Origin: Candidatus Saccharimonadota bacterium
GTDB taxonomy: Bacteria; Patescibacteriota; Saccharimonadia; Saccharimonadales; SZUA-47
NCBI GenBank assembly: GCA_020428465.1
Contig: JAGQMY010000047.1
Location: 1-24,000 of the forward strand
Reading direction: 5' to 3'
DNA length: 24,000 nt
Made by a program: the position numbers and the translations under genes. A model generated the notes under the pieces. The model had not been told where the DNA came from and made no database searches. It worked only from the letters and a program-made list of their open reading frames with translations. This document shows, one piece after another, positions 1,264 through 24,000 of this stretch (within the stretch, counting starts at the first letter, position 1; every line of letters starts with the position of its first letter).

Positions 1264-1348
1264 TAAAAAGCTAGCACACCCTTCATTAAAAAGGACTTAA
1301 AAAACACCAAAACTATATGAGGTCAACTTTCTGCTGTAAACTGTAAGT

Positions 1349-5720: not shown

Positions 5721-6349
5721 TGGCTAGCTCCAAAAAGTACGTCAATAATATTTTGAGGTACCCCCAAGTTTACTAGAGACTCCGTGTCAAAGTAACTTCC
5801 GGAAAACAAAATGTCCCAACTGTTATTTCTTAGCCTAGCCAATACTACCTCGCCCTCAACACCTGGACGCGAGCTAAATAATCTACCGGTTGCCCATTCA
5901 TTTTCAATAATTTTGACATTTTTTAAACGATAGCCACCACTAAGTGTGATGACTGAATTTTTTGAGCTTAAAACATCAACCAAATCAGATTCTGTCGATG
6001 TTTTTTTATTAGTAAAGGCAACAGTGCTTTCTACCACTGCATCTTTGTATGTTGTTATGTTTAAGTTTATATCATCAAAATCGGCACTCCTTAAAGTATA
6101 GCTTGCATTACCCAGCGGCAGTCCAACCGCTGCTCCACTTACCGAAATTGATGAGATTAATTGTTCATTACTATCTAATAAATTAATAGGAGAAGCATTC
6201 TCGGGTGTGTAATATAGCCTAAAGTACCCTAAGTTTACATTTGTATCATTACCATTGTTTTTATCATGTTTAACGGAACTCAAATACGAGAATGCAACAA
6301 CAAGCAAAATCGCCACTAACGGCACTATCAATAACTTAATCGTTCGCAT
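5717..6349 (-). CDS. Hypothetical bitopic membrane protein (VirB8-like role possible, unproven)
   Basis: The track ORF starts at 6385, overlapping the upstream gene by 34 nt. The ATG at 6349 gives MRTIKLLIVPLVAILLVVAFSYL, has AGGAG ~10 nt upstream and lies 2 nt after the upstream TAA. Single N-terminal TM plus ~180-aa ectodomain, with no catalytic motif. Confidence 0.6.
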   Translation of the reverse strand: MRTIKLLIVPLVAILLVVAFSYLSSVKHDKNNGNDTNVNLGYFRLYYTPENASPINLLDSNEQLISSISVSGAAVGLPLGNASYTLRSADFDDINLNITTYKDAVVESTVAFTNKKTSTESDLVDVLSSKNSVITLSGGYRLKNVKIIENEWATGRLFSSRPGVEGEVVLARLRNNSWDILFSGSYFDTESLVNLGVPQNIIDVLFGASQ

Positions 6350-6351
6350 GG

Positions 6352-10146: not shown

Positions 10147-10158
10147 TTAAACCCCAAA

Positions 10159-12063: not shown

Positions 12064-12869
12064 TATTGTAGCTCCCTCTCAAGTTGTGGCTGAGCAGCGT
12101 GGCCTACGCCCTTTTCAATAACCGGTGCATTCATATCTTCAAAATTCTTGAGCGGCTGACGTGTAGCCGTATCTGGATTGTAGGCATCATAGTAAAGCTC
12201 GATTAATTCCTGGGTATCAAGTGGGATAGAGGCTACGCCAGACTGCTGTAGTCCAGCCATAACGGCTTGGATGCGATTTTTTAACTCTGTTTTTGCTTGC
12301 TCTAGCACCGCTTCGTTGATTACTACTTGTGTATCTTTTTTACCAAATACAGCGGTAAAAAAGTTTTTACTAGCTTTTATGGCTTTCTGCGTGTCCAGTT
12401 GCGGGAAAAAAGGTATAACAACGTAAAATCTCTTATCCATTATGTTGGTCTGCAATGCTAAATTCTCGATAAAGTCTAAGTAGTCGTCCATCAGGAGTGC
12501 GAGCAACATATTATCATGCTCAGAACGAATTTTATCTAGCTTTTCTATATACGGTCGTAGATCGACTTTTTGACTACGGACAAAAATCTGAATCGGAAAG
12601 TATAACGAATTTAGAAAACCTTGGTAGCTGAACTCGACAGCTTCACGCTCCTGGGGGCTCATTAGGTCGAAATTGATACTTTGACAAGCTAAAACAGCTC
12701 GAAAGCTGCCGTCGTTCATTATCACGATACCATCTCGAATCTCGGCAATTTCAAGAGAATTCTGAGTGCTGTTCGGATTCGACTTTACCATAGGTTGAGC
12801 TACAGGTTGACCAGGTACTCCGGGCATGGTCTGCTGAATATTCGGCTGTATCGCTTGGTTTGGATTCAT
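12063..12869 (-). CDS. Soluble T4SS-associated protein of unknown function (reminiscent of a VirB4 N-terminal, non-ATPase domain)
   Basis: 268 aa with no TM and no Walker motif. The Pro/Gln-rich first 40 aa are followed by EIRDGIVIMNDGSFRAVLACQSINFDLMSPQEREAVEFSYQGFLNSLYFPIQIFV, a pattern I associate with N-domains of some Gram-positive VirB4/TraE-type ATPases. AGGTGG SD. Coupled to virB4. Confidence 0.55.
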   Translation of the reverse strand: MNPNQAIQPNIQQTMPGVPGQPVAQPMVKSNPNSTQNSLEIAEIRDGIVIMNDGSFRAVLACQSINFDLMSPQEREAVEFSYQGFLNSLYFPIQIFVRSQKVDLRPYIEKLDKIRSEHDNMLLALLMDDYLDFIENLALQTNIMDKRFYVVIPFFPQLDTQKAIKASKNFFTAVFGKKDTQVVINEAVLEQAKTELKNRIQAVMAGLQQSGVASIPLDTQELIELYYDAYNPDTATRQPLKNFEDMNAPVIEKGVGHAAQPQLERELQ

Positions 12870-12887
12870 TTTCCACCTTTAATCAGG

Positions 12888-14054
12888 TTAGTGTAATTGA
12901 ATAACAACTTCATCTTCATCTGGCTTGTCTCTATCTACCTGCCTAGCTAGAGTGTCCACCGTTAAGTCGTCGTTGCCTGCTAAGTTTAGTATAGCAGGAT
13001 TAACGGGGTGAGTGCTAGGAGTTTGTGTTGTTTGTGGTTGGGATACGGAAGGCTGATTTCCAGATGGATTTTGACCCAAAGGCTGAATGGTTTTCAATCG
13101 ACTATTTGAACTAAACTGAGCATCAAGTTGTTGTTGTTTGTGAACTTTTTGGAGCAAATTTTGCTCATCAGTTGAAGTTATACCAGTATTTGGCTGTATT
13201 GACGGTACTGGCTGGCTTAGCGGAGTTTGTTTTGCAGGAGCTACTAATAAAGGTGGCGTTTTAAAGCTAGCAACAGTAGGATCGGCTTTATTATTCTGGT
13301 TAAGAAACCATAAATCATCGGCGGTCGTTTGATTATTGCTGTTACTTTTTGGTTGAGGAAGTGGCATAGGGTAATTTTGTTGTTGAGTTGCTGGTCCTTG
13401 CTCGGACATCCTTCTCGCCTCTTCAATCATTCCAAGAGTGTCACGGCGGTGTTTCGTATTTGACTGTTCAATCATATTGTCAAATTGACGCGCAAGCGGA
13501 TTGGATGCCTCGTCCATAACATCAACAGTGTTATCTACTAAAACCGTTTTTTCATCTTGTACGTCTGTTGGCAAAGAAACTAACCTATCACTCGTGTCGA
13601 GGTTGCTACGAGTGGATAAACTTGAAAGATTTTTTACTGCCCAGCCCCTACTATCTACAACTGACGCTAGCGCATTAAACCGACTTCTTACTTCGTCAGG
13701 ACTTAGCCCATCAGTTAAATTGTGGTGCTCACGTTTTGGTACGGTTATCTTCACGAGCTCTTTCATCCCGGCTTGATCCCATATGCGTTTTCGCCTTATG
13801 AACATGAACCTAATGTGTGCTGCAAGCCAGAGCTCAGACGGTTGGTCTTTAGTCCAGGGAAATGCCAGGATACCTAATGCTATTGCTGGTAAGCCAAAAA
13901 GCGGAGACAAAAATGCAGCTCCTTTTGAGATGGTGATAAAAGTTAACCAACCGAACATTGCCGTCCCACCAAAGAATAGAAACTGCCGAAATGTTAGGGG
14001 GCCTAAAAACTTATCTTCTGCCTCAACATCTTGAGGTACCTTATACACAGCCAT
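12888..14054 (-). CDS. PrgI-family (VirB3-like) T4SS membrane protein with ~280-aa low-complexity C-terminal extension
   Basis: 388 aa. The N-terminus MAVYKVPQDVEAEDKFLGPLTFRQFLFFGG plus two TM helices (AMFGWLTFITI.., LFGLPAIALGILAF) matches the PrgI-family signature (KVP.D...EDK....LT.RQ). It sits two genes upstream of virB4. The remainder is rich in Q/P/N/S/T. Confidence 0.65.
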   Translation of the reverse strand: MAVYKVPQDVEAEDKFLGPLTFRQFLFFGGTAMFGWLTFITISKGAAFLSPLFGLPAIALGILAFPWTKDQPSELWLAAHIRFMFIRRKRIWDQAGMKELVKITVPKREHHNLTDGLSPDEVRSRFNALASVVDSRGWAVKNLSSLSTRSNLDTSDRLVSLPTDVQDEKTVLVDNTVDVMDEASNPLARQFDNMIEQSNTKHRRDTLGMIEEARRMSEQGPATQQQNYPMPLPQPKSNSNNQTTADDLWFLNQNNKADPTVASFKTPPLLVAPAKQTPLSQPVPSIQPNTGITSTDEQNLLQKVHKQQQLDAQFSSNSRLKTIQPLGQNPSGNQPSVSQPQTTQTPSTHPVNPAILNLAGNDDLTVDTLARQVDRDKPDEDEVVIQLH

Positions 14055-14189
14055 ATGGCTATAGTATAAAACAGTTAATGCATATAAAGAAACCTAAGGA
14101 TGTTATAACAAGTAACTATAAATTCATGTTGTTTTGGTGTGTGGATTTTATTTAAATGACTAGTAGATAACTAATACTTACTGGTTTGA

Positions 14190-15992
14190 CTATGCGTTGT
14201 CAGGATCGCCGTTATTTTGTTGCTGTTCCTGCTGTCTTCTATATTCCTCGCGACGTCGATTTCTCGCATCAATTAGCGCTTGCTCCCACTCTTGTTGTTT
14301 CCGTTGTTTGCGGCCTGCTTTTAGTTGTTCGTTGTTGTCCTCAACGCGCCTTCGTCTTACTTTTCTTGCGTCTGATCTTTGGCGCCTTCTTAGTTGTTTT
14401 AGTTTTCCGCGATCTTCTGGCTTTGCCGGACTCAAAGACGCTCTGCTGTCTTTTGTTGTAATTTTGATATTTTCCCGTCTTATCCTGCTTAAAGCTGCTT
14501 GCTCGTCAAAACCTTTCAAATTTCCGAATGTATCAATCCATTCTTGTCTTTCCGCCTCCAGGAAGTAGTAGTTACTTGCGTTTAAGATCGATAATTCCTT
14601 TTGATCAATATACTTAAGGTTAGGGAACAATTCACACGCGACATCTGTTATAGCTGCAACCTTTTCCCAGTTCTTCTCGGCTAATGCCGTACCACCGGTA
14701 CGTAATGGCTGGCCGTCAAAGAATAACTGACCAGTTTTCTTATTAAATCTCACAGGTGGCATTGATAGTAAACCTCTGGCGCCCAACTTATCTCTAAGTG
14801 CATGCGCACCAGCATCATCCCCTTCGGGATTGATGTTAGATCCATATCTAAGAATTGAGATAATCATCGCTGCTCTTTGCAGAATAAACTGTGACCTAAT
14901 GAATTCTTCCGATGTTGGTTCTACGGCTTTTTCTATGGTGGTCTCAAGTGCTGTATTAACTATTGTAGTTAGGTTCGCTATGTCTACTGCACTAAATCCT
15001 GATAGCTCGTAAGACCTTATCTTCGCAGCCATTTCCTGGATAAATTTAACCCCATCAACACCCCTATACTCATACTCACCCTTTGCGTTAATTGCATAGT
15101 ATAAGTGCCTAAACGACAAGTGCTGACCTTTGTGTGCGTAACCTATTCCCAAAATCAGTCCCGCAATATCTCTATCTGTAAATGGCCCGCCTTCAAACGA
15201 GTATTGCCTTCGTTTAGCGGCTTCGTTTACTAATTCGAATGTTCTCTTGATTGTCTCTATAAATTGAAGTTCATGAGATGATTTGTGTATCTCATACCAA
15301 AAAGCTGCCGCAAACGCTGAAGGGTCTTGGAACCACTGTTGTCTAGCTTGAGCAACTTGTGCTGCATTGTAAGTTTTGTTTGGGTCGTGTATATCAATCC
15401 ATACTCCTGGTCTATCTGGTGACTCTCGAGCGAACAAAGCACGGATTAGTTCATCTGGACCGGTACTTTCCTTATTGTGCATAAGCTCCATGAAAAGTTT
15501 GTTAGCTTTAGCACGTCTTTCGTCTTGGTTTGTAAAGTTTTCGGTGTTACCAAAATAAATAACACCAGCTTTTCTAACGAACCTCTCGAGTCTCCTGAGT
15601 GGTGCGCCACCAGCTCCTTCAGGTTTGATTCCAGCTCTTTTTACTGCTTCCATGGTTGGAATGGGGTAAGCTTTACCGACCTCTGCAGTTTCGTAACTTG
15701 TCGAAATTCTTGCCCTGTCTTTTGACGATGCGGGCACATTTGAATCGCCTATAAACATTCTTTTTGCTGCTTCAGCAAGCATTCTAAACGTATCAGGGTC
15801 GGATGTATCAAGCTCTTCGTTCACGCCGGGCATACTAAGTGCTGATTGACCTATCAATGCTCGTAACATACTCGGATCAACATCACCCAAACGCGCCATA
15901 TCCGACGGCAATACTAACCCTGATTCAGTCTGTTGCCAATCGAGGCGGGGGTCTTGTGGAACCTGGGGGTTCTGTGGATTAGGGCTGTCCAT
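14190..15992 (-). CDS. Soluble 600-aa protein of unknown function with Arg/Lys/Gln-rich C-terminal tail
   Basis: Long ORF with no TM, no signal peptide and no NTPase motif. The last ~100 aa (nt ~14190-14490) read ...KLKQLRRRQRSDARKVRRRRVEDNNEQLKAGRKQRKQQEWEQALIDARNRRREEYRRQQEQQQ. Embedded between the VirB6-like and PrgI-like genes on the same strand. Confidence 0.7.
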   Translation of the reverse strand: MDSPNPQNPQVPQDPRLDWQQTESGLVLPSDMARLGDVDPSMLRALIGQSALSMPGVNEELDTSDPDTFRMLAEAAKRMFIGDSNVPASSKDRARISTSYETAEVGKAYPIPTMEAVKRAGIKPEGAGGAPLRRLERFVRKAGVIYFGNTENFTNQDERRAKANKLFMELMHNKESTGPDELIRALFARESPDRPGVWIDIHDPNKTYNAAQVAQARQQWFQDPSAFAAAFWYEIHKSSHELQFIETIKRTFELVNEAAKRRQYSFEGGPFTDRDIAGLILGIGYAHKGQHLSFRHLYYAINAKGEYEYRGVDGVKFIQEMAAKIRSYELSGFSAVDIANLTTIVNTALETTIEKAVEPTSEEFIRSQFILQRAAMIISILRYGSNINPEGDDAGAHALRDKLGARGLLSMPPVRFNKKTGQLFFDGQPLRTGGTALAEKNWEKVAAITDVACELFPNLKYIDQKELSILNASNYYFLEAERQEWIDTFGNLKGFDEQAALSRIRRENIKITTKDSRASLSPAKPEDRGKLKQLRRRQRSDARKVRRRRVEDNNEQLKAGRKQRKQQEWEQALIDARNRRREEYRRQQEQQQNNGDPDNA

Positions 15993-16053
15993 ATTTAAAA
16001 CATTAGCACATTATTGCAAAAAAGTAAAGAAGTTTATAGTAAAACAATCAATC

Positions 16054-18690
16054 TTATGACGGATTCCAAGGTGTTGCGGTACCCCCTCCATCATCTTCGT
16101 CATCGGGAGTTGCATCGCCTGCAGCTGCTTGAGCAGGATCGGCAAAGTTAGTGTTTTGACCAGCTAATGTTGCTTGACTTGTTGTGGGATCGCTTGGGAT
16201 TGGCGATGGGGCTACGGGGGTTGGAGGGGATTCTAGTGGCGAATCTGGGTTAAATGCACCACTGTTTTCTTCCTCTGTAACGGCTCTGTCTGCTCGCCTG
16301 GCCCTTCTGTCTTGTCTATATTTTCTTGCTTTTTCTCTTGCACCCCTTACTGTTGGGTGCCAGCCTCGAGCTACTTGCACCGCAGCATTATACGTTTTCA
16401 AATCTCTTACATAGGCTTCTTGTTGCCTTGTGTACTCCTCTTTCTCGGCCGCACCAGCATCATCTCTAGGAGGCGTTGGAGCTTCAGGTTTTTTTGGCAT
16501 TCCCTGCTTAAGCAGAGTTAGCCCGCCACGACCCACCCTAAAATCTGCCCAGTGCAAAGCTCTGTTGCTATGCGACTCTAGTCGGGCATCACGCATACTT
16601 GCACGGGTGTGATTAACTTGATGTCGTCTGCTGGATTGATCATACTCGCTTCCCATGAATTTCTCGTATCGCTTCTTGTTAAAGCCAGTTATAGCACCTG
16701 ATATTGACGATATTGCGCCCCCAGCGAGCTTAAAGGCAAACGGTATTAAGAAAAACGGTATAAAGAGCACTACCAAAGCTACAAACTGATTTATTGTATA
16801 CGAGCCCCCATCACCAGCTGCACTGAACATCATCATTGATAGAAGATCGGCTATAGCAAAAATAGCCATTATTATCGGATAAACCATAAGTGTTTTGATA
16901 AACAAATCAAACCATTTTTTAGCGTACTTTTCCGTACCGGGAATAGCATATAAAGCTAGCGCTATTGGAGATATGACCGCTAAAAGAATAACTAAACCAC
17001 GACGAATAACTATAGTTCCAAAAATAGCAATAGTAGTTAAAAGCATGGGTATTAAGAACGAGTAAAGTAATAATGTGAAGAAGCCACCGGTTGTGAAGAA
17101 GCCGAGGAGAAACTTGCCGCCCAGATACGTAGCAAAAAGTCCCCCAAGACTGAGTAGTTGATTTGGCTTGAATGAGAAACTCCCAGCCCCACCTAACGGA
17201 GCAGTTATAAGTTGGCCAATACCCCTACCTAACACATTAAACACATCTACCGATAGTGCAACAATGAAATACGATATATTTATAAGAATTGCTGCAATTA
17301 AAATTCTTGGCATTGCCTTTTTAGCCGTGTAAGCATCAACCAGTCCACCACCTATAGCTTGACCGAATACGATTACTAGCAGTGCGATGACGAGTATTAT
17401 ATTGCCTAATGTCCTGAATCCTCTCCACACCTGGTATGCTGTGTCATTTGACTCGGTGGTTAAGGGGCTAGTGACGAGGAAAGGTTCTATAATCGAGTGA
17501 AACATCCAGTCTATGCCATCAAGTGCGCCGTTGACAATGGGACAAAAAAGAAAGGCTAACGAGAACCCAGAACTCTCGCAAGTCGGGGTGTCTTCACCGG
17601 TTTCGAGATTAAAGGAACCTGCTTGTTCCTCACCAGTGCCTGCTTCTTTATTGGCATTTTCGTTATCTAATAGCGGATAGCTCACTCCTGTAATTGGCGG
17701 AACACGATAGTAGTCATGAGATTGAAACGTACCAGCTTTATCTACATCTTCTCTGACATCAACAACCTGACAATCAGAAATATTTATTGCGCTTATACCC
17801 CATTCTGAAGCTGGTTTTTGTGAACCGTAAGCGTCTCCGTCACTAAGTGAACCATTTGCAACTAATATGTAGTATTTCATCGTAGCAGGATTGGTTGATT
17901 TATCGACGATTATTACATCATCACATGGACCCACCTCGTCTGCTCTAAAGACATTAGGTTCGCTTGAGTCTTGAACAAAGGGAGTAGGAATATTTTTTAT
18001 GGAAGTTGCATGATCGCTCTCGACTATTCTAATTGTCAAATCTACTGCTGGTTCAATCTTTGCACTATCTACCCAGCGAAAATAAGCAGTACTGAATTGG
18101 GTGTTTTTAACCGATATGCTACCAGTATTATCAACCTTATTTCCGTCACTGTCTATGTGGGTATTTAAATCACCGGAGTCTTTGCACTCTGTTCCATCAG
18201 AATTGTAGAAATCGATATCGGTTTTAACCTTGGTAAGTGGTGTGTTGTCTAAAAAATTATCTTGATTGGTTATACTATCGGCAATGAATGTAATCTTATT
18301 ATAACAAGACGAAGGCCAGCCCTGTATCTCATAATCTGTACTTTGTCTGTGGTTACCATCAGTAAGGCTCGTTCTCTGGGCGATAACACCTTTGGCATCA
18401 CCATGGCCGTCTTTCGGTACTACGTCATAACTAATTCCTGGTTTTGTTTTAAAAGTTAGTTTAGCAAGACCGGCATTTACCCAAGTAAATTCAAATATAT
18501 CGGCCGGATTGCCAATAATCCTTCCCTTACTGTCTGTGGTTAAACCGTACGTTTCAGGTACAGCTACTCCATTTTCCGCGGCCTTAGCTGTCTGAAATAG
18601 CCCGTTCACAATGAAAGAGTTAAGAATAAATATAATGAATATTAAAAATATAAATATTCTCTTTTGTTTTTTTACGATAGGAAAAACCAT
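16054..18690 (-). CDS. TrbL/VirB6-like polytopic T4SS channel protein with large N-terminal ectodomain and ~200-aa charged C-terminal tail
   Basis: 878 aa. Signal/anchor IFIFLIFIIFILNSFIVNGLFQTAKA, then a ~340-aa ectodomain. At least 6 hydrophobic helices follow, including the ISPIALALYAIPGTEKYAKKW..L...M.YP block typical of TrbL/VirB6. The tail (nt 16054-16680) is rich in R/E/P. Confidence 0.7.
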   Translation of the reverse strand: MVFPIVKKQKRIFIFLIFIIFILNSFIVNGLFQTAKAAENGVAVPETYGLTTDSKGRIIGNPADIFEFTWVNAGLAKLTFKTKPGISYDVVPKDGHGDAKGVIAQRTSLTDGNHRQSTDYEIQGWPSSCYNKITFIADSITNQDNFLDNTPLTKVKTDIDFYNSDGTECKDSGDLNTHIDSDGNKVDNTGSISVKNTQFSTAYFRWVDSAKIEPAVDLTIRIVESDHATSIKNIPTPFVQDSSEPNVFRADEVGPCDDVIIVDKSTNPATMKYYILVANGSLSDGDAYGSQKPASEWGISAINISDCQVVDVREDVDKAGTFQSHDYYRVPPITGVSYPLLDNENANKEAGTGEEQAGSFNLETGEDTPTCESSGFSLAFLFCPIVNGALDGIDWMFHSIIEPFLVTSPLTTESNDTAYQVWRGFRTLGNIILVIALLVIVFGQAIGGGLVDAYTAKKAMPRILIAAILINISYFIVALSVDVFNVLGRGIGQLITAPLGGAGSFSFKPNQLLSLGGLFATYLGGKFLLGFFTTGGFFTLLLYSFLIPMLLTTIAIFGTIVIRRGLVILLAVISPIALALYAIPGTEKYAKKWFDLFIKTLMVYPIIMAIFAIADLLSMMMFSAAGDGGSYTINQFVALVVLFIPFFLIPFAFKLAGGAISSISGAITGFNKKRYEKFMGSEYDQSSRRHQVNHTRASMRDARLESHSNRALHWADFRVGRGGLTLLKQGMPKKPEAPTPPRDDAGAAEKEEYTRQQEAYVRDLKTYNAAVQVARGWHPTVRGAREKARKYRQDRRARRADRAVTEEENSGAFNPDSPLESPPTPVAPSPIPSDPTTSQATLAGQNTNFADPAQAAAGDATPDDEDDGGGTATPWNPS

Positions 18691-18803
18691 AATCTATAGG
18701 TACAACTATATCAAGAAAATAGATAAAAGTTTATTACTTTTTCATAGAATAGGGTTTTTTATGTAATATAATGATTAATTATGCTAGGATATAAATAGTA
18801 GTT
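18691..18803. promoter_or_regulatory. AT-rich divergent promoter region between the VirB6-like operon (-) and the pilin array (+)
   Basis: 113-nt A/T-rich spacer between divergent starts. Plus-strand TATAAT at 18767-18772 and TATAAA at 18790-18795 (8 nt before the ATG at 18804). Minus-strand TATAGT at 18710-18705 (14 nt before the ATG at 18690). Neither first gene has an SD. Confidence 0.4.
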
Positions 18804-19538
18804 ATGCAAAAAATAAAACATATCCAACCCAAAGCAATTCAAATAATATTTACACTTTCCTCGGCTTTATTACTCACATTACTAATCAGACCTAGCTATG
18901 CAAGCGCAGCTCTATCACCAGGCTGTTACATACAAGGACCCTCGGGTGGCTATACAGAGCATGATTGTGTGAATAGTGACACTGACCCAAATACTCAATG
19001 CGAGATTACGATCAGTTCTAGGAGCGGCCCCTCAACTACTACGATTAAAGATTGTGATACTTTAAGTCAGCCGACACAGAGTGATGGGGGTACGAGTGGT
19101 GGTACAGATACTAATCCAGGATCAGCAAACCTAAACTGTACAAGTGGTGGCTCATCTGATATTTGTAGCCCAATAAGTCCTGGAGGCGAAACAAGCACCT
19201 CCACAGGCACCGATGGTAAACAATGCGGTCGCGGTGAATCAGCTGTTGTTTTGAGCATTTCTATCGGTTGTAGGGGTAATGACTGGCCAGGCGTAGATTC
19301 TGTTAATCCTATCATAGATATGGTTTTAGCAGTGGTAAGATTCCTGAGTTTGGGTGTTGGAGTCGTAGTAGTTGGATCGATTATTTGGGCTGGGATCCAA
19401 TATTCCACATCAAGAGGTGACCCCCAAGCAGTTTCAGCATCTATAAATAGGGTTACAAATTCATTTATAGCATTATTGTTGTATATATTTATCTTTGCGA
19501 TTGCAAACTTTTTAGTTCCGGGGGGCATGTTTATATGA
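18804..19538 (+). CDS. T4SS pilin-like protein (VirB2/TrbC topology), enlarged paralog 1 with Cys/Ser/Thr/Gly-rich ectodomain
   Basis: 244 aa. Signal peptide ...LLIRPSYASA, a ~130-aa S/T/G-rich region with about nine Cys, then the TM hairpin LAVVRFLSLGVGVVVVGSIIWAGIQYSTSRGDPQAV...FIALLLYIFIFAIANFLV shared with the downstream paralogs. Confidence 0.7.
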   Translation: MQKIKHIQPKAIQIIFTLSSALLLTLLIRPSYASAALSPGCYIQGPSGGYTEHDCVNSDTDPNTQCEITISSRSGPSTTTIKDCDTLSQPTQSDGGTSGGTDTNPGSANLNCTSGGSSDICSPISPGGETSTSTGTDGKQCGRGESAVVLSISIGCRGNDWPGVDSVNPIIDMVLAVVRFLSLGVGVVVVGSIIWAGIQYSTSRGDPQAVSASINRVTNSFIALLLYIFIFAIANFLVPGGMFI

Positions 19539-19984
19539 TAAAGAAGCTTATTTCTAAGTTTCTATTGTTCCAACTCGGCGTATTTATATTTGTGCCTATT
19601 ACAAACATTGGTGTCGCAAGTGCTGCAGATTCGGGATGTACTGGTGGAAGTTTCTTAGGTTTTCCAACTTGGTATGAGTATTTAGATAAACAATCAGTCC
19701 CAAATGACATTACGACCGACCCAAATGATGAAATATGCGAGCTAAAGGTAGACAATATTAAAGACTTCTGGCTTATCGCACTCGCCGTGATAGAGATACT
19801 GCTTAGGGTAGCATCTATTCTTGCGGTAGGTATGCTAATTTATGGTGGAGTTAGTTATGTGATTAGCGAGGGTAATCCTGAAAAAACTAAAAAAGCACAA
19901 AGCACTATTATTAATGCAATCGTAGGTCTAGCCATAAGTATAGTAGCGGCATCTGTCATCGGGTTCGTTGCGAGGAGTTTTTGA
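19535..19984 (+). CDS. T4SS pilin-like protein, paralog 2
   Basis: 149 aa. Signal peptide ..NIGVASA/AD, Cys pair (SGC...EIC), TM1 LAVIEILLRVASILAVGMLIYGG, loop VSYVISEGNPEKTKKA, TM2 IINAIVGLAISIVAASVIGFV. ATGA overlap with paralog 1. Confidence 0.75.
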   Translation: MIKKLISKFLLFQLGVFIFVPITNIGVASAADSGCTGGSFLGFPTWYEYLDKQSVPNDITTDPNDEICELKVDNIKDFWLIALAVIEILLRVASILAVGMLIYGGVSYVISEGNPEKTKKAQSTIINAIVGLAISIVAASVIGFVARSF

Positions 19985-19987
19985 TTT

Positions 19988-20320
19988 ATGAATTATCTAT
20001 TATTAAATAGTCGTTTATCACAGCTTAAAAATTGTAACCCTGGTTCCGGAAATACGGAAAATGTTAATTGCAATACCACCTTACCTGACGTGTCGGCGAG
20101 TAGTGACACCTTATCTAAAGTTTTGCCTATTTTGTTCGGCACAATTACTGCTATAGCGGTTCTTATTATTGTTGTTCAGGGGATACGTTTTGTTTTGAGC
20201 AAGGGTGAACCGGATAAAGCACTGCAAGCTCGAAAGGGTGTTATTTATGCTGCAGTTGGCCTTGCCGTTGTCTTTATGGCAGACATAATTGTCGCATTTA
20301 TTTTAAAGAGGTTCCTATAA
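19988..20320 (+). CDS. T4SS pilin-like protein, paralog 3 (no recognisable signal peptide)
   Basis: 110 aa. Same C-terminal hairpin (ITAIAVLIIVVQGIRFVLSKGEPDKALQARKGVIYAAVGLAVVFMADIIV) and a Cys pair (NCNPGSGNTENVNC). The N-terminus MNYLLLNSRLSQLK lacks a hydrophobic signal core. GAGGAG SD upstream. Confidence 0.65.
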   Translation: MNYLLLNSRLSQLKNCNPGSGNTENVNCNTTLPDVSASSDTLSKVLPILFGTITAIAVLIIVVQGIRFVLSKGEPDKALQARKGVIYAAVGLAVVFMADIIVAFILKRFL

Positions 20321-20739
20321 TGCGAAAAATTTCACTCTTTATTTTATGCATGCTATCGTTGTCATTTAGTGTTTTTACCACATTCATACCTGTTGCTGGT
20401 GCTGTTGATCTGAATAGTGAAGTATGTACCACTTCAGATCCTGCCAATCGCCCAAGTATCTGTAATGATTTAGATCCCCTTAGTCCTGAAGCCAAAAATG
20501 TAAATCCACTCTATGGTCCCGAAGGCATTATTACTAGGGCAGTCAACGGGCTTTCTCTTTTAGCGGGATTGATATCTGTAATTATGATAATAATCGCCGG
20601 AATAAAGGTTAGCATGTCAACTGGTGATGCTGGTAAGATTAAAGCGGCGCGAGATCAAATTATTTACGCCATAGTTGGGTTGATCGTAGCAGGATTAGCT
20701 CAAGCAATTGTAAGGCTACTGCTAAACAGGATTGGATAA
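20320..20739 (+). CDS. T4SS pilin-like protein, paralog 4
   Basis: 139 aa. Signal peptide ..IPVAGA/VD, Cys pair (EVC...SIC), hairpin LLAGLISVIMIIIAGIKVSMSTGDAGKIKAARDQIIYAIVGLIVAGLAQAIV. TAATG overlap with paralog 3 and AAGAGG SD. Confidence 0.75.
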   Translation: MRKISLFILCMLSLSFSVFTTFIPVAGAVDLNSEVCTTSDPANRPSICNDLDPLSPEAKNVNPLYGPEGIITRAVNGLSLLAGLISVIMIIIAGIKVSMSTGDAGKIKAARDQIIYAIVGLIVAGLAQAIVRLLLNRIG

Positions 20740-20768
20740 TAGAATATGAAAAGGAGTATCAATCAATA

Positions 20769-21233
20769 ATGAAACGAATAATATATGGGTTTTTCGGAAT
20801 TCTTTTATCTGTGGGAATATTTATATTGCCCGTAACAGTTAATGCGAGCCCATTTGACTCGGCAAGAGATACGGCTTGCCAAGGTCTAGAATTTAGCGAT
20901 GGAGACAGCACTACTTGTGATACCAGCGATGGTACAAAGATAAACTCTACCGTGGCAACAGCGATCAACTTAATTTCGCTCGTGGTTGGATTTGTGTCCG
21001 TAATTATGGTAATAGTTGGTGGTCTAAAATACACAACTTCGCATGGTGATTCAAGCGGAATTAGTAGTGCTAAGGACACTATTCTTTATGCAATAATTGG
21101 CCTAATAATCGTCGCAATGGCCCAATTGATGGTAAGGTTTGTACTAAGTAAAACAGCAGATAATAGTTCAGATAGCCCAGGCGTAGGATCGTCCATTAAC
21201 GATTGTGCTCCAGGGCAAACTCCACCATGCTAG
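20769..21233 (+). CDS. T4SS pilin-like protein, paralog 5 (extra Cys-containing C-terminal tail)
   Basis: 154 aa. Signal peptide ..VTVNA/SP, Cys pair (ACQGLEFSDGDSTTC), hairpin LVVGFVSVIMVIVGGLKYTTSHGDSSGISSAKDTILYAIIGLIIVAMAQLMV, then the tail ...SSINDCAPGQTPPC. AAAGGAG SD. Confidence 0.8.
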   Translation: MKRIIYGFFGILLSVGIFILPVTVNASPFDSARDTACQGLEFSDGDSTTCDTSDGTKINSTVATAINLISLVVGFVSVIMVIVGGLKYTTSHGDSSGISSAKDTILYAIIGLIIVAMAQLMVRFVLSKTADNSSDSPGVGSSINDCAPGQTPPC

Positions 21234-21255
21234 GATTGCTATAGTAATCGTGTTA

Positions 21256-21264
21256 TGTTATAAA
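21256..21264 (+). promoter_or_regulatory. Candidate extended -10 promoter element for pilin paralog 6
   Basis: TGTTATAAA, that is TG-n-TATAAA, lies in the 65-nt spacer before the 21299 start. No convincing -35. AT-rich context makes chance matches likely. Confidence 0.3.
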
Positions 21265-21298
21265 CTAATTAAACTAAATAAAAGGAATTAAAAAAGTC

Positions 21299-21715
21299 AT
21301 GAACAGAATCAAAAGAGTAATTATCAGCCTAATAGCGGTACTTGGTTTAGCAGTACCAATGTTCGCACCAGCAGTCGCTTCAGCAGCAGAAATCGACAAT
21401 AACCTATCATGTGGAGCTAACTTAGATTTCACAAATTCTGGTGGTGATTGTGAATCAAATAATAAAGACGGTGATGCAAGCTCAAGAGTTCAAAAAATAG
21501 TTACAAACATTATCAACATCGTATCTCTAGTAGTCGGTGTCGCTGCAGTCATTATGATAATGGTTGGGGGCTTGCGCTATATCACCTCTAATGGTGATTC
21601 TGGCCAAGTTGGAAACGCTAAGAACACAATTCTTTATGCTGTAGTTGGTCTTATTGTTGTAGCTCTAGCTCAAATCATTGTGCGATTTGTAGTTAACAAA
21701 GCAACAACTGCTTAA
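21299..21715 (+). CDS. T4SS pilin-like protein, paralog 6 (candidate major pilin)
   Basis: 138 aa. Signal peptide ..APAVASA/AE, Cys pair (LSCGANLDFTNSGGDC), hairpin LVVGVAAVIMIMVGGLRYITSNGDSGQVGNAKNTILYAVVGLIVVALAQIIVRFV. Has its own upstream spacer and a downstream hairpin. Confidence 0.8.
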   Translation: MNRIKRVIISLIAVLGLAVPMFAPAVASAAEIDNNLSCGANLDFTNSGGDCESNNKDGDASSRVQKIVTNIINIVSLVVGVAAVIMIMVGGLRYITSNGDSGQVGNAKNTILYAVVGLIVVALAQIIVRFVVNKATTA

Positions 21716-21735
21716 TTAAAACAGATAATTCAGAT

Positions 21736-21767
21736 AAAGCACTTTCGCAGAAGCCGGAAGTGCTTTT
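21736..21767 (+). terminator. Candidate intrinsic terminator after pilin paralog 6
   Basis: AAAGCACTT (21736-21744) pairs with AAGTGCTTT (21758-21766) around a 13-nt loop, followed by a short T run. The stem is only moderately GC-rich and the loop is long, so it may be a partial terminator or attenuator. Confidence 0.45.
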
Positions 21768-21823
21768 CAGTTGTATGTAATTTATGCTAATCTTATTCTT
21801 AGAAACAAGGAGTAAATCTAAAA

Positions 21824-22267
21824 GTGAAAAGACTCAAATCAATCATTTATACATTAGCTATCGCAATAGGAATTGCAGCACCATTAGCTATTGCATCGCC
21901 AGCTGGTGCACAAGATATAGAAAAAAATCTACAATGTGGTGCTAATCTCAAATTTTCGATGGCCGATGGCAGCTGTGAAGTGGATAATAACGGTAATACT
22001 GCAGCTGAAAGAATCGACCAGATTGTTTCACAAGTAATCAATTTGCTGTCACTAGCAGTTGGAGTTGTAGCAGTAATCATGATTATCGTCGGTGGATTCA
22101 AATACATTACATCTGGGGGTGATTCAGGTAATGTTACGGGCGCAAAGAACACTATACTTTACGCTGTAGTAGGGCTAATTGTCGTAGCTTTGGCACAAGT
22201 AATCGTAAGATTCGTGGTAGACCGCGCTACACTAACTGGTAATACAACCGGATCAGCTACCGATTAG
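21824..22267 (+). CDS. T4SS pilin-like protein, paralog 7 (close duplicate of paralog 6)
   Basis: 147 aa. GTG start with AAGGAG 11 nt upstream. Signal peptide ..ASPAGA/QD, Cys pair (LQCGANLKFSMADGSC), hairpin LAVGVVAVIMIIVGGFKYITSGGDSGNVTGAKNTILYAVVGLIVVALAQVIVRFV, near-identical to paralog 6. Confidence 0.8.
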   Translation: MKRLKSIIYTLAIAIGIAAPLAIASPAGAQDIEKNLQCGANLKFSMADGSCEVDNNGNTAAERIDQIVSQVINLLSLAVGVVAVIMIIVGGFKYITSGGDSGNVTGAKNTILYAVVGLIVVALAQVIVRFVVDRATLTGNTTGSATD

Positions 22268-22290
22268 AATTTACATTCAATAATGTATTA

Positions 22291-22319
22291 AAAAACGCCC
22301 GGACAAAACCGGGCGTTTT
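22291..22319. terminator. Bidirectional intrinsic terminator between convergent pilin 7 and hsp20
   Basis: AAAACGCCCGG (22292-22302) and CCGGGCGTTTT (22309-22319) form a perfect 11-bp GC-rich stem around the loop ACAAAA. A-run and T-run flanks allow it to work on both strands. Confidence 0.8.
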
Positions 22320-22340
22320 GATTAAACTTGCAAATTTATT

Positions 22341-22832
22341 TTACAAAACCTGGATTTTCTTAATCGTGTCTTGTTTTAGCTTCGTAAACGAAATAGTTAG
22401 GACACCGTCTTTAAGCACGGCTTCAATCTCATCTTCTTTTACTGGTACAGGCAGTGCAATACTCCTGCTGAATTCACCCCAATAACATTCCTGCACAAAG
22501 TAGTTCTCTACCCCGGCCTCTTCACCAGCGGATAATGTTCCTCTAATGCTGAGAGTATTGTCTGCGATACTAACATCTAAATCGTTTTTGTTTACGCCAG
22601 CGGTTCTTGCCTTAACCACCAACTTTTCTTTGGTTTCGAATACATCAACTGCAAGTTGACCAGGAACGGCTTCTTCCTCATCCCAATCTTCTTGCACAGG
22701 TGCCTCATCCATCACCATGTCTTCTTCGACTTCCGGCATTGCTGTCATTGGCGTATTATCTTCTTCACCTAGAAAAGCAGCCGTAAGTTCATCTTCCAAG
22801 AGTAAATCATCGTCTCGAGATTTTCTCGCCAT
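22341..22832 (-). CDS. hsp20: Small heat-shock protein, Hsp20/alpha-crystallin family
   Basis: Alpha-crystallin core GQLAVDVFETKEKLVVKARTAGVNKNDLDVSIADNTLSIRG...FSRSIALPVPVKEDEIEAVLKDGVLTISFTK, preceded by an acidic N-region. The track ORF extends to 22901. AAGGAGG (22847-22841) is 8 nt upstream of the ATG at 22832 (MARKSRDD) and only 2 nt from the ATG at 22838, so 22832 is preferred. Confidence 0.9.
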   Translation of the reverse strand: MARKSRDDDLLLEDELTAAFLGEEDNTPMTAMPEVEEDMVMDEAPVQEDWDEEEAVPGQLAVDVFETKEKLVVKARTAGVNKNDLDVSIADNTLSIRGTLSAGEEAGVENYFVQECYWGEFSRSIALPVPVKEDEIEAVLKDGVLTISFTKLKQDTIKKIQVL

Positions 22833-23054
22833 TTTCATTCCCTCCTTAAAAAATAGAGCTTGTATGGGACAACCTGTTTTGGGTTGCCCCGAGACATTCA
22901 AGCGTGTTTATGTTAAAGATAGTATAACTGAGAAAGACTGCAATGAGCAACATTGTCAAACTTATTTACAACATAATAAAGACAACGGACTGCACATTTA
23001 CGCAAAACCCTATTTACTTTTTTAGATTATATTTTATCGTGTCATAATGCGACT

Positions 23055-23723
23055 ATGAATATTGTCGATAAATTAGTTGGATTGATTGCACCTAATATAT
23101 GTTTTGGGTGCGGTGCGGAAGGCAGTGTGTTATGTGCAGATTGTACTGAGCTTTTCTATAACCCTATCGTGTCTAGGTGTGCCAGCTGTAGAACACTGAC
23201 TGATGATTTTAAAGTTTGTAAAACCTGTAGGTCATGGATGCCAATAAAATCCGTCTACGTAGCATTGGGTTATGACGGGCTTGCCGAGAAACTCATACAT
23301 GCTTATAAATTTGATTGCCAGAGACAAGCGTCTACCCCGATGGCTGATATCATGACTAAAAATTTCTCATTTAATGATGTACTTGTTTGTCCTGTGCCAA
23401 CAGCCCCGAAACGAATAAGGGAGCGAGGCTTCGACCATGCACTACTGCTTAGTAAAAATATCGCTAAAAAACTCGAACTAGAACACAGACAACTGCTAAG
23501 TAGAAGAGATAATATCAGACAGCTTGGTTCAGGTAGAGCTCAAAGAATTAGACAGATGAAGGATGAATTTGAGGTCAATTCAGATGATATTTCTGGTAAG
23601 AAAGTATTACTTATAGATGATGTTGTGACTACTGGAGCTAGCTTAGCGGCTGCTGCTAGAGTTCTAAGAGATGCAGGTGCAAAATCGGTTTCGGCACTGG
23701 TGTTCGCACAAAAGAACAGATAA
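23055..23723 (+). CDS. comFC: ComF-family protein (ComFC-type phosphoribosyltransferase-fold competence protein)
   Basis: 222 aa. N-terminal four-Cys zinc-finger-like CFGCG....LCADC plus CASC...CKTC. C-terminal PRTase motif KKVLLIDDVVTTGASL. Confidence 0.85.
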   Translation: MNIVDKLVGLIAPNICFGCGAEGSVLCADCTELFYNPIVSRCASCRTLTDDFKVCKTCRSWMPIKSVYVALGYDGLAEKLIHAYKFDCQRQASTPMADIMTKNFSFNDVLVCPVPTAPKRIRERGFDHALLLSKNIAKKLELEHRQLLSRRDNIRQLGSGRAQRIRQMKDEFEVNSDDISGKKVLLIDDVVTTGASLAAAARVLRDAGAKSVSALVFAQKNR

Positions 23724-23728
23724 AAAGA

Positions 23729-23983
23729 TTATTTTTTTGCTAATTTTTTACTAAAAACAACAATTAAAATTCCACTGATTGCTATAACAGCACCCAAAAT
23801 CCACGTGAGATACGCTTCAGGACTAGAGTTACCAAAATCACTGCTTAGATATATTAGCCCAACAATAAAAACAGAGCTGATAGATAACAAGGCACCGAAA
23901 ATAACGATAAATATCCATCTACGTCTAAGCAAAGCCATTAGAGTCGGTACTATAACTGCTATTATTATTGCCCACACAAGCAA
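23729..23983 (-). CDS. Small hypothetical membrane protein (about 3 TM segments)
   Basis: 84 aa, almost entirely hydrophobic helices separated by RRRW and SSDFGNSSPE, with a KKLAKK tail. Its stop is 5 nt from the comFC stop (convergent). No homology recognisable by eye, and it lies close to the window edge. Confidence 0.4.
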   Translation of the reverse strand: MLVWAIIIAVIVPTLMALLRRRWIFIVIFGALLSISSVFIVGLIYLSSDFGNSSPEAYLTWILGAVIAISGILIVVFSKKLAKK

Positions 23984-24000
23984 GTCATCTAAATACTGTT

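Follow-up and report, generated by a model that had tools for sequence, protein, structure and literature searches.

An ordered array of seven T4SS_pilin family genes beside the secretion locus of a Saccharibacterium

Our analysis revealed that seven tandem genes in a 24,000-nucleotide stretch of Saccharimonadales DNA (the window) encode, as judged from their sequences, T4SS-linked members of the CPR-enriched Pfam family T4SS_pilin. They probably supply the pilins for a Saccharibacterial T4SS of the monoderm type (MPF-FATA-like), encoded next to the replication origin, and would form a heteromeric pilus or conduit of ordered, non-interchangeable subunits. Pilin arrays of this kind have already been published, and seven copies is a normal number. 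What is added here to the published array papers is the positional orthology with its conservation gradient from P1 to P7, a junction between two haplotypes, the absence of a signal peptide from P3 and a double-hairpin gene. A secretion machine with a pilin array is needed by the ultrasmall Saccharibacteria for life on host bacteria.

An ORF check of the window found the array as seven plus-strand ORFs at 18804-22267, exactly where the original prediction had placed it. The array adjoins VirB6-like, PrgI/VirB3-like, TraC-like and VirB4-like T4SS genes, with dnaN and recF near. The features are as follows.

10159-12063, minus strand: VirB4-like ATPase (PF19044, 95.9 bits, and AAA_10; 87-89% identity in L001 and L004)
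12063-12869, minus strand: TraC-like protein, 268 aa (PF26593 on record for an identical protein; 69-78% identity between genomes)
12888-14054, minus strand: PrgI family protein, VirB3-like (PF12666, 50.4 bits)
14190-15992, minus strand: 600-aa protein, family unassigned, hypervariable, with a charged C-terminal tail
16054-18690, minus strand: VirB6-like membrane protein (polytopic; large extracellular region at the N-terminus), divergent from the array
18804-19538, plus strand: P1, 244 aa, largest pilin paralog
19535-19984, plus strand: P2, 149 aa, pilin paralog
19988-20320, plus strand: P3, 110 aa, pilin paralog without signal peptide
20320-20739, plus strand: P4, 139 aa, pilin paralog
20769-21233, plus strand: P5, 154 aa, pilin paralog, extra tail at the C-terminus
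21215-21233, plus strand: right-hand junction of the haplotype-divergent block, within the end of P5
21299-21715, plus strand: P6, 138 aa, conserved pilin paralog, candidate shaft subunit
21737-21768, plus strand: terminator-like hairpin and U-run between P6 and P7 (MFE -19.7 kcal/mol, z -3.3)
21824-22267, plus strand: P7, 147 aa, most conserved pilin paralog, candidate major pilin
22292-22319, no strand assigned: strong hairpin terminator common to P7 and the convergent Hsp20 gene (MFE -21.6 kcal/mol, z -5.7)

For a protein identical to the VirB6-like one, PF19590 (TrbL_3) is on record; the TrbL match obtained here was weak (E 0.12). The 600-aa protein gave no match in the Pfam scan and is 16-19% identical to its positional equivalents, the one in L007 having a single database homolog. 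No Pfam match to a relaxase or coupling protein was obtained among the window proteins scanned. Within the array, the P2 start overlaps the P1 stop (ATGA), P3 begins one codon past the P2 stop (TGA) in an unchanged frame, and the P4 start overlaps the P3 stop (TAATG). P7 starts with GTG behind an AAGGAG ribosome-binding site and probably forms a transcription unit by itself. The GC stem and U-run between P6 and P7 lie at the same position in L002, L004, L005 and L006 as well (five genomes with the window). In the annotation of the identical public contig, the P1 gene is uncalled.

With regard to family membership, the C-termini of all seven proteins carry two hydrophobic helices with the loop G[ILF][KRQ][YVF]xxSxG[DNE] between them, as found by alignment and hydropathy, and the helices are strongly hydrophobic in every member (Kyte-Doolittle 2.3-2.9). 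Six proteins passed the 26.6-bit cut-off of T4SS_pilin (PF18895) at 32.7-52 bits (P2, 32.7; P3, 41.1; P4, 41.8; P5, 37.6; P6, 52; P7, 51.7), and P1 scored 22.5, below it. An hhalign comparison joined the P1 family to the P6/7 family over 63 hairpin columns (96% probability, E 2.3e-9), and at the level of sequence the shared C-terminal match is far beyond chance. TrbC/VirB2 (PF04956) was matched by 53 of 66 family relatives at E<=1e-3, and its gathering score of 27.9 was reached by none of the seven window proteins (best, P7 at 24.6). The common hairpin module that had been predicted is borne out by the alignment, the hydropathy and PF18895, and the proposed kinship to VirB2/TrbC and T4SS_pilin by both profiles and the T4SS neighbours; a lack of matches to T4SS pilin profiles, named at the time as grounds for refutation, did not occur, since PF18895 was returned. 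AF2 models showed the hairpin of P7 at H60-96/H101-139 (pLDDT about 90) and, in P1, a small beta domain at residues 38-88 (pLDDT 85-92), disorder at 94-130 and the hairpin at H169-202/H207-237.

Signal-peptide-like N-termini were recognised by inspection in six of the seven proteins, as predicted, with cleavage sites ending in ASA (P1, P2 and P6), AGA (P4 and P7) and VNA (P5). P3 is the exception, and no N-terminal hydrophobic run occurs in the P3 of any of seven arrays. The mature N-terminal segments hold eight cysteines in P1 and two in each of P2 to P7, all even counts; the hairpins hold none in any of the seven, and P5 has an additional pair in its C-terminal tail (NDC....C, kept in L001_5, L002_5 and L007). 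Exactly two cysteines were found in 120/120 P6/7-like proteins. Among the 77 P1-like proteins, the number was even and non-zero in 71, and none had a cysteine within the last 70 residues. A cysteine pair in every paralog had been foreseen correctly; the spacing of 7-30 residues given for it fails for P2, whose pair is 33 apart. Likewise, the N-terminal segment is variable as described, with a length of about 34 to about 133 residues in place of the ~25 to ~150 first estimated. Given the signal peptides, the paired cysteines and the Cys-paired tail of P5, both termini are predicted to be extracellular, as in the topology of VirB2. This is also supported by L003, where one gene at the P2/P3 position holds two hairpin modules, the N-terminal segment of the second directly following the C-terminus of the first.

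The same hairpins could be membrane-embedded parts of a channel or assembly platform that never form an extracellular filament, since monoderm T4SSs are normally pilus-free; we regard this as rather doubtful. The machinery is indeed of the Gram-positive type, generally without pili, and the best NCBIfam match of all seven proteins, over the hairpin, is the pilin-like Mycoplasma ICE conjugal transfer protein Mbov_0395 (NF045849; 19-30 bits against a cut-off of 40). A profile search against PDB sequences found no VirB2 or TraA, and Foldseek gave no significant match in the PDB, solved pili included (E>1; archaeal conjugation pilin 8dfu ranked only 35th and 6th), a helical hairpin being too simple for discriminating folds. 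Nevertheless, the kinship to TrbC/VirB2 pilins speaks against purely embedded parts, and disulfide-bonded ectodomains of up to about 130 residues, fast-evolving in P1, point to exposure outside the cell. Cryo-ET of the Saccharibacterium M. amalyticus revealed a tube of unassigned make-up that measures 8.6-9.0 nm across and 61-70 nm in length and carries a barb at the tip. Its width is like that of conjugative pili, which measure about 8-9 nm. A conduit resembling a pilus has been put forward in reviews.

Ordered subunits are indicated by the comparison of seven arrays from seven genomes, in which 263 of 288 best hits fell at the same ordinal position. Each paralog is closer to its positional ortholog than to any paralog in its own genome; within the array, paralogs are 19-48% identical, except for P6 and P7 (57%, alignable throughout). 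The segments had been called unalignable between paralogs, which does not apply to this last pair. Cross-genome identity climbs from P1 (28-43%) to P7 (56-75%), against 87-89% for VirB4, a second comparison repeated this pattern, and related Saccharibacteria carry six to eight pilin genes at the same place. P1 consists of the signal peptide (ASA, residues 33-35), the eight-Cys ectodomain, a membrane-proximal CG.GE..V..S..IGC.G motif, the hairpin and a C-terminal NFLVPGG; only 77 homologs were found, the closest besides P1 itself 50% identical, and its relatives range from 136 to 421 aa. P2 orthologs are 47-53% identical, share the ortholog-specific ectodomain motif FLGFPTWY(E/K)YLD, and have collinear best hits in 42/42 comparisons. 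The L002 ortholog of P4 is 61% identical, P6 orthologs are 57-67% identical, and P7 has 4697 homologs at E<=1e-5. The ectodomain motif NLxCGANLxF...C is nearly invariant across P6/P7 orthologs, so that the term hypervariable suits the differences between paralogs and between P1 orthologs but not those between orthologs of this pair. Positional orthology and the conservation gradient suit a set of specialised subunits without redundancy better than a set of variants that could replace one another.

Between two haplotypes of the locus, identity is about 97% from P6 to the right and 40-77% to the left, over P5 to P1, the gene for the VirB6-like protein and the gene after that. P5 is the last gene of the divergent block, and the junction is sharp: between the window and L007/L011 the last mismatch is at 21221, the next ~110 aligned bases (to 21330) are identical, and identity in 100-nt windows is 36-77% on the left and 86-100% on the right. 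Differences in P1-P5 affect mostly signal peptides and ectodomains, the hairpins being 85-93% identical. P6 of haplotype L007 is 96% identical, with five of six changes in the ectodomain.

Such divergence, together with the low identity between paralogs other than P6/P7, would suit interchangeable alternative major pilins kept for changing the surface that they expose, either to alter host range or to escape host defences, as proposed for the VirB2 paralogs of Bartonella and Anaplasma and put forward in the published CPR survey. We consider this unlikely. Order and one-to-one orthology persist even though the VirB6-like proteins are only 25-42% identical between genomes (32% between the two haplotypes), individual paralogs have retained distinguishing features (FPTWY in P2, the missing signal peptide of P3, the Cys tail of P5), and the array shows signs of neither gene conversion nor copy-number flux. 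In addition, all six pilins of Southlakia epibionticum ML1 (SEML1_0014-0019) scored as essential by Tn-seq (Wang et al., Cell 2023, PMC10633639), by which none would stand in for another; for the upstream genes the score could reflect polar effects downstream. Antigenic variation, one of the options first offered, is thus disfavoured by positional orthologs being closer than own-genome paralogs, and the division into minor or tip versus major pilins is the best fit among them. It is very improbable that the genes encode Sec-secreted effectors delivered to the host: signal peptides are present and earlier literature describes the 'Sec secreted array' of TM7x as 'six putative effector genes', but two strongly hydrophobic pilin-family helices imply retention in a membrane or polymer rather than soluble release. 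Holins, bacteriocin immunity proteins and other unrelated small membrane proteins, hinted at by the small size, the two transmembrane helices and a very weak holin match of P2 (E 0.27), are effectively refuted by family matches and synteny, with PHROGs matches in 0/7, phage and bacteriocin genes absent nearby, and T4SS linkage kept in every related locus examined.

Under the preferred reading of a heteromeric pilin set, Sec would export every protein except P3 and the signal peptide would be cleaved. The hairpin would then insert into the cytoplasmic membrane with its ends outside and the G-x-K/R-Y-x-x-S-x-G-D loop inside, and disulfides would stabilise the outside segment. The VirB4, PrgI(VirB3) and VirB6-like platform could extract the hairpins and stack them into a short tube, pilus or conduit, reaching the host bacterium. 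In this view the seven represent ancient orthologous groups, kept in order, that do different work. Most of the shaft is most likely made of P6 and P7, since these are the most conserved and P7 apparently has its own transcription unit. P1-P5 evolve progressively faster and are translationally coupled, which makes them probable low-copy, specialised subunits of the tip, adaptor layer or base, the assignment to shaft or tip resting on conservation and operon layout only. The large, variable, Cys-rich ectodomain makes P1 the best candidate for host contact. Filament formation by the seven, the placement of the subunits and a role in host specificity are what we infer from this arrangement.

Like VirB2/TrbC/TraA (PF04956), the window pilins have a signal peptide, two hydrophobic helices, a short basic loop and linkage to VirB3, VirB4 and VirB6 homologs, with weak but consistent sequence similarity. 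In contrast to that system, seven distinct subunits take the place of a single major pilin, their N-terminal ectodomains are long and disulfide-bonded, and the outer membrane, VirB5 tip protein, VirB7/9/10 core and VirB11 of diderm T4SSs are lacking. Mbov_0395 of Mycoplasma ICEs shares the hairpin coverage and monoderm T4SS context, whereas it measures about 80 aa (80-position model) and has no long ectodomain. The minor-pilin sets of type IV pili and type II secretion pseudopili, which offer an analogy only, comprise several low-abundance paralogs of one assembly module, encoded together in conserved order and each required. In fold and assembly machinery these sets are unrelated to the window pilins: a type IV pilin carries one helix, at its N-terminus, and is processed by a prepilin peptidase.

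The ML1 locus is similarly built, with orthology resting on gene order and lengths only: tandem plus-strand PF18895 pilins right after a divergent VirB6-like gene, a convergent Hsp20 gene past the array followed by a plus-strand gene of about 220 aa, a short P3-like member (about 103 aa, pilin domain from near residue 38), and machinery resembling Gram-positive conjugative T4SSs with no relaxase or coupling protein recognised. It differs in having six genes, probably without the P6/P7 duplication, and in its first gene, which encodes only 132 aa where P1 has 244; the Tn-seq data come from ML1. The claim that seven copies are unusually many does not hold, given these six, the six to eight of relatives, and the CPR survey of Quinonero-Coronel et al. 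(Microb Genom 2025, PMC12102498), in which 441 arrays near virB4 comprised 2-11 pilins of PF18895/PF04956 each, with the highest abundance in Saccharimonadia. A search for terms in the paper showed 'ortholog' and 'signal peptide' to be unmentioned, 'cysteine' not tied to pilins and 'recombination' not tied to the array. The identity of 19-57% within our array fits the surveyed range (mean about 25%, maximum 54%; PMC12102498). Host-strain versatility is the reading preferred in the survey, whereas fixed, distinct roles are what the orthology in order described here points to.

There is good support for identifying the seven tandem pilin-like genes, P1-P7, as a T4SS pilin array. The best-supported model of their product, which we hold with moderate confidence, is a heteromeric VirB2-like pilus or conduit. 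Its assembly would be carried out by a platform comprising VirB4, PrgI and the VirB6-like protein; P6 and P7 would build the shaft, and P1-P5 would serve as specialised minor subunits, with P1 being the likeliest host-contacting element. All seven plus-strand ORFs were found exactly at the coordinates of the original prediction, and folding located two hairpins beside them.

Pilin genes and terminator-like hairpins of the array
18804-19538, plus strand: P1, 244 aa
19535-19984, plus strand: P2, 149 aa
19988-20320, plus strand: P3, 110 aa
20320-20739, plus strand: P4, 139 aa
20769-21233, plus strand: P5, 154 aa
21299-21715, plus strand: P6, 138 aa
21737-21768, 3' of P6: terminator-like hairpin with a U-run (folding, z -3.3)
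21824-22267, plus strand: P7, 147 aa
22292-22319, 3' of P7: strong terminator (folding)

Alignment and hydropathy bore out the predicted common C-terminal module in all seven proteins, a short loop connecting two strongly hydrophobic helices (the hairpin). Residues V190, G197, S203, G205 and L224 mark the invariant columns of the seven-protein alignment, and paired hydropathy peaks of 2.3-2.9 in every protein correspond to the two C-terminal transmembrane segments of PF18895 (T4SS_pilin). By inspection, six of the seven carry a signal peptide, as had been proposed, with a basic n-region, a hydrophobic core and an A-x-A-like site (ASA in P1, P2 and P6, AGA in P4 and P7, VNA in P5); the N-terminus of P3 does not resemble a signal peptide. 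The expected Cys pair is present in every mature N-terminal segment, with eight Cys residues in P1 and two in each of P2-P7, but the proposed spacing of 7-30 residues does not hold for P2, whose pair is 33 residues apart. P5 has a second pair in its C-terminal tail, and none of the seven hairpins contains a Cys residue. The variable segments are indeed of very unequal size, spanning about 34 to about 133 residues rather than ~25-150, and the claim that they cannot be aligned between paralogs fails for P6 and P7, which are 57% identical and alignable throughout.

The Cys pattern extends to homologs. Exactly two Cys residues were found in all 120 P6/7-like proteins and an even, non-zero number (2-20) in 71 of 77 P1-like proteins, with none of these 77 having a Cys residue within its last 70 residues. 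Cys parity and the P5 tail argue for a predicted topology in which both termini are outside the cell. In the related contig L003, a single 219-aa gene with two hairpin modules (1211-1870, minus strand) occupies the P2/P3 position, which is consistent with P3 having its N-terminus on the outer side even though it has no signal peptide. The database protein P0053 likewise contains two hairpin modules. In the window, the P2 stop (TGA) is followed by one codon (TTT) and the P3 ATG in the same frame (19982-19990); a conserved programmed read-through of this TGA into P3 was rejected, since P2 and P3 share a frame in the window and in the related locus L002 but not in L001.

In the AF2 model of P7, helices H60-96 and H101-139 form a confidently predicted hairpin (pLDDT about 90), and the ectodomain is of low confidence. 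The model of P1 shows a small beta domain (residues 38-88, pLDDT 85-92) holding four Cys residues, followed by a disordered Ser/Thr/Gly-rich linker and then the hairpin (pLDDT 75-84). Foldseek searches of the PDB with both models gave no match with E<1, the helical hairpin being too generic a fold; amid ATP synthase subunit c and other such hairpins, the archaeal conjugation pilin 8dfu had a TM(target) of 0.58-0.64 and E of 2.5-6.2. No pilin came up in a PDB search by sequence profile, whose only match, to cytochrome bd, was spurious. One alternative, in which the seven proteins would be membrane-only channel parts, we consider unlikely.

All-against-all BLASTP of the arrays gave a clean diagonal, the best match of each window pilin in another genome being the one at the same ordinal position (for instance, P1 with L001_1 at 188 bits, P4 with L002_4 at 135 bits and P7 with L002_7 at 206 bits), and paralogs within a genome scored only 22-99 bits against each other, P6/P7 excepted. 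Among the 288 best hits of the seven arrays, 263 were collinear, compared with roughly one in seven by chance. Individual positions also have conserved features of their own: P1 shows CG.G...V..S..GC.G before the hairpin and NFLVPGG at the C-terminus, P2 the motif FLGFPTWY(E/K)YLD and P5 its Cys-paired C-terminal tail, and P3 is without a signal peptide in seven of seven arrays. Conservation, measured as the identity of proteins from other genomes to their window counterparts, followed a gradient.

Identity of proteins from other genomes to their window counterparts
VirB4: 87-89%
Hsp20: 81-86%
P7: 56-75%
P6: 57-67%
P5: 44-56%
P4: 36-62%
P3: 33-51%
P2: 28-53%
P1: 28-43%
VirB6-like protein: 25-42%
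600-aa protein: about 30% or undetectable

The same pattern was seen in an independent genome trio. P7 has 4697 database homologs forming a smooth identity continuum; P1 has 77, and its nearest non-self match is 50% identical. A reading of the copies as interchangeable variant pilins is, in view of the collinear best hits, decidedly unlikely.

With regard to family membership, six of the seven paralogs exceeded the gathering score of PF18895, 26.6 bits (P2-P7: 32.7, 41.1, 41.8, 37.6, 52.0 and 51.7 bits), which upholds the predicted T4SS pilin identity. P1 scored 22.5 bits, under this threshold, and PF18895 is on record for about half of its orthologs. Given that the aligned P1 orthologs match the P6/7 family profile-to-profile (hhalign, 96% probability, E 2.3e-9, 63 hairpin columns), P1 appears to be a true relative and can best be regarded as a member of a divergent T4SS_pilin subfamily. 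PF18895 was matched by all 66 P6/7-family members, and PF04956 (TrbC/VirB2) by 53 of 66 at E<=1e-3 (best 5.2e-8). Within the window, the PF04956 gathering score of 27.9 bits was not reached, the best three scores being 24.6 (P7), 21.5 (P3) and 19.7 bits (P4); these profile matches indicate a related family, not membership. Against the best NCBIfam match, the Mycoplasma ICE protein NF045849 (Mbov_0395 pilin-like conjugal transfer protein; cut-off 40 bits), the seven scored 19.3-30.0 bits, below the cut-off. A tblastn search of PLSDB plasmids for plasmid-borne relatives gave no match. In earlier papers on TM7x, these genes were described as a Sec-secreted array or as putative effectors; set beside both the signal peptides and the PF18895 matches, secreted effectors are highly improbable. 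Holins have a negligible probability, a phage holin origin having been rejected on 0/7 PHROGs matches and no phage genes in the window, with the sole holin trace in Pfam being a match of P2 to Phage_holin_2_4 at E 0.27.

VirB6-like, PrgI, TraC-like and VirB4-like genes are located within 9 kb of the array, a linkage kept in the related loci L001-L007, which derive from Saccharibacteria/Saccharimonadales MAGs. In addition to the minus-strand genes listed below, a PrgI/VirB3-like protein, a TraC-like protein and a VirB4-like ATPase are encoded on that strand.

Neighbouring genes
166-2413: dnaN and recF, about 4 kb from the first T4SS-linked gene
3990-5720, minus strand: secreted protein with an M14 zinc carboxypeptidase domain, 576 aa, just past the T4SS genes
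6352-10146, minus strand: T4SS-linked protein, 1264 aa, with a GDSL lipase domain at residues 826-1024
14190-15992, minus strand: 600-aa protein of unknown family, between the PrgI and VirB6-like genes
16054-18690, minus strand: VirB6-like protein, 878 aa, divergent from the array; an identical protein is recorded with TrbL_3

The position of dnaN and recF places the locus close to the origin, as already noted in the literature for CPR T4SS loci. On the 3' side, the array is followed by a convergent Hsp20 gene and a ComF-like phosphoribosyltransferase gene. The 1264-aa protein is a possible VirB1-like hydrolase acting on wall or lipid. Towards its C-terminus, the stretch ECSGLAS ... GGHVAI has, by eye, the look of a CHAP/NlpC-type cysteine peptidase, and Pfam gave no match for this part. 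The putative M14 peptidase could act on peptidoglycan peptides. The 600-aa protein has no family match, and its C-terminus is rich in Arg, Glu and Gln and highly charged; between genomes, the proteins encoded at this position are 16-19% identical and essentially unalignable. In the VirB6-like protein, the N-terminal ~400 residues, probably extracellular, are unalignable between the two haplotypes described below, the membrane core shows about 73% nucleotide identity between them, and the last ~200 residues are charged and Pro-rich.

Within the array, P1 and P2 overlap by ATGA and P3 and P4 by TAATG. Since terminator-like hairpins follow both P6 and P7, P7 is probably a separate transcription unit. 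A GC stem with a U-run is also found between P6 and P7 in L002, L004, L005 and L006, its position being kept and its sequence not. Neither of the hairpins confirmed by folding was picked up by a consensus scan for promoters and terminators, which was uninformative. Positions 4556-23030 of the window are 100% identical to the JGI metagenome contig Ga0116244_10003675, in whose record P1 is uncalled and an antisense 153-aa ORF is annotated instead (window 19067-19528, minus strand; 3503-3964 in the contig L019). Since this public record has an antisense ORF in place of P1, annotations and surveys may underestimate the number of P1-type pilins.

A second haplotype, represented by L007 and present in five independent assemblies (L007, L008 and L011-L013), changes in identity to the window at a single point. 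From 21222 to 24000, 100-nt windows are 86-100% identical, giving about 97% identity over 2.8 kb right of the junction; the encoded proteins are 96% (P6), 99% (P7), 100% (Hsp20) and 96% (ComF) identical, with dS of 0.07-0.17. From 15000 to 21221, 100-nt windows are only 36-77% identical, and the proteins show 73% (P5), 61% (P4), 74% (P3), 50% (P2), 47% (P1) and 32% (VirB6-like) identity; the 600-aa gene also belongs to this divergent side. Synonymous sites of P1-P5 are saturated, dS being undefined in four of the five and 1.6 for P4. The last mismatch, at 21221, falls within the final codons of P5, and the junction is sharp. Both junction types recur independently (L007 type in five assemblies, window type in three), which rules out an assembly chimera. 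As the window-type contig L020 is 97% identical to the window over 10208-18096, a value of about 97% represents ordinary within-lineage divergence. With a shared right flank of only 2.8 kb, that the two haplotypes belong to the same species is the parsimonious reading rather than an established fact.

The divergence is unevenly distributed along the proteins. In P3-P5, the hairpins are 85-93% identical between haplotypes and the signal peptides and ectodomains diverge; in P6, five of six changes are in the ectodomain. Searches with L007, PrgI and TraC-like queries did not locate where the divergent block ends on the left: a single match, from another species, was obtained with the L007 homolog of the 600-aa protein, exact look-ups of the window PrgI and TraC-like proteins gave window-type contigs only, and a metagenome scan with the L007 VirB6-like protein gave no L007-type contig. 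In a check of the generality of the mosaic, contigs with an L005-type P7 were all clonal (about 100% identity).

In the Saccharibacterium M. amalyticus, cryo-ET has revealed an unassigned tube that runs from the inner membrane and bears a barb at its tip; it measures 8.6-9.0 nm in width and 61-70 nm in length. This width matches that of conjugative pili, and we infer that the tube may be linked to the pilin array. A more far-reaching joint reading, which we regard as doubtful, would combine a heteromeric, fixed-architecture 'lance', namely this barbed tube of roughly 9 nm by 60-70 nm with a P6/P7 shaft and a dedicated P1-P5 tip or adaptor, with a contiguous host-specificity cassette comprising P1-P5, the VirB6-like gene and the hypervariable 600-aa gene, exchanged en bloc by recombination among strains that are otherwise almost identical. 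If true, the cassette would determine which host bacterium a Saccharibacterium can parasitise.

Patescibacteria, which live attached to their hosts, account for much of bacterial diversity, and the T4SS and its pilins are essential in the one species tested. Our results sharpen the question of pilin structure and copy number in two respects: the copies are a conserved, ordered set of distinct subunits, and sharp differences between haplotypes are seen in the five copies of lowest conservation, in the VirB6-like gene and in the gene next to it. Both results lead to testable predictions on the heteromeric conduit and on host-range determinants. We found no mention of the ordered orthology, the P1-to-P7 gradient or the sharp junction in the published accounts of such arrays that we consulted.

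Arrays of this kind, with VirB2-like pilins in tandem at a T4SS locus of CPR, have been published before. A survey of CPR reported 441 VirB2 arrays of 2-11 genes in 383 assemblies, with a mean identity of 25% and the greatest abundance in Saccharimonadia (Quinonero-Coronel et al., 2025, PMC12102498). The related loci contain 6, 7, at least 5, 7, 7, 8 and 7 genes, the eight of L006 being seven pilin-like genes and one non-pilin. The latter, an extra 193-aa gene between the VirB6-like gene and P1 (L006 6609-7190, plus strand), encodes one transmembrane segment followed by a C-terminal domain. As arrays in the literature and at related loci have comparable gene numbers, the claim that seven copies are unusually many is refuted. 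Southlakia epibionticum ML1 has six PF18895 genes (SEML1_0014-0019), all scored GD/ES/ES by Tn-seq, and it is only for ML1 that the requirement of each pilin for epibiotic growth is known (Wang et al., Cell 2023, PMC10633639). The ML1 array follows a divergent VirB6-like gene and precedes Hsp20 (PMC10633639). The window shows the same S. epibionticum-type layout near the origin, its tandem pilins being flanked by a VirB6-like gene transcribed divergently and an Hsp20 gene transcribed convergently, and the VirB6-like/pilins/Hsp20 synteny is likewise found in L004-L007.
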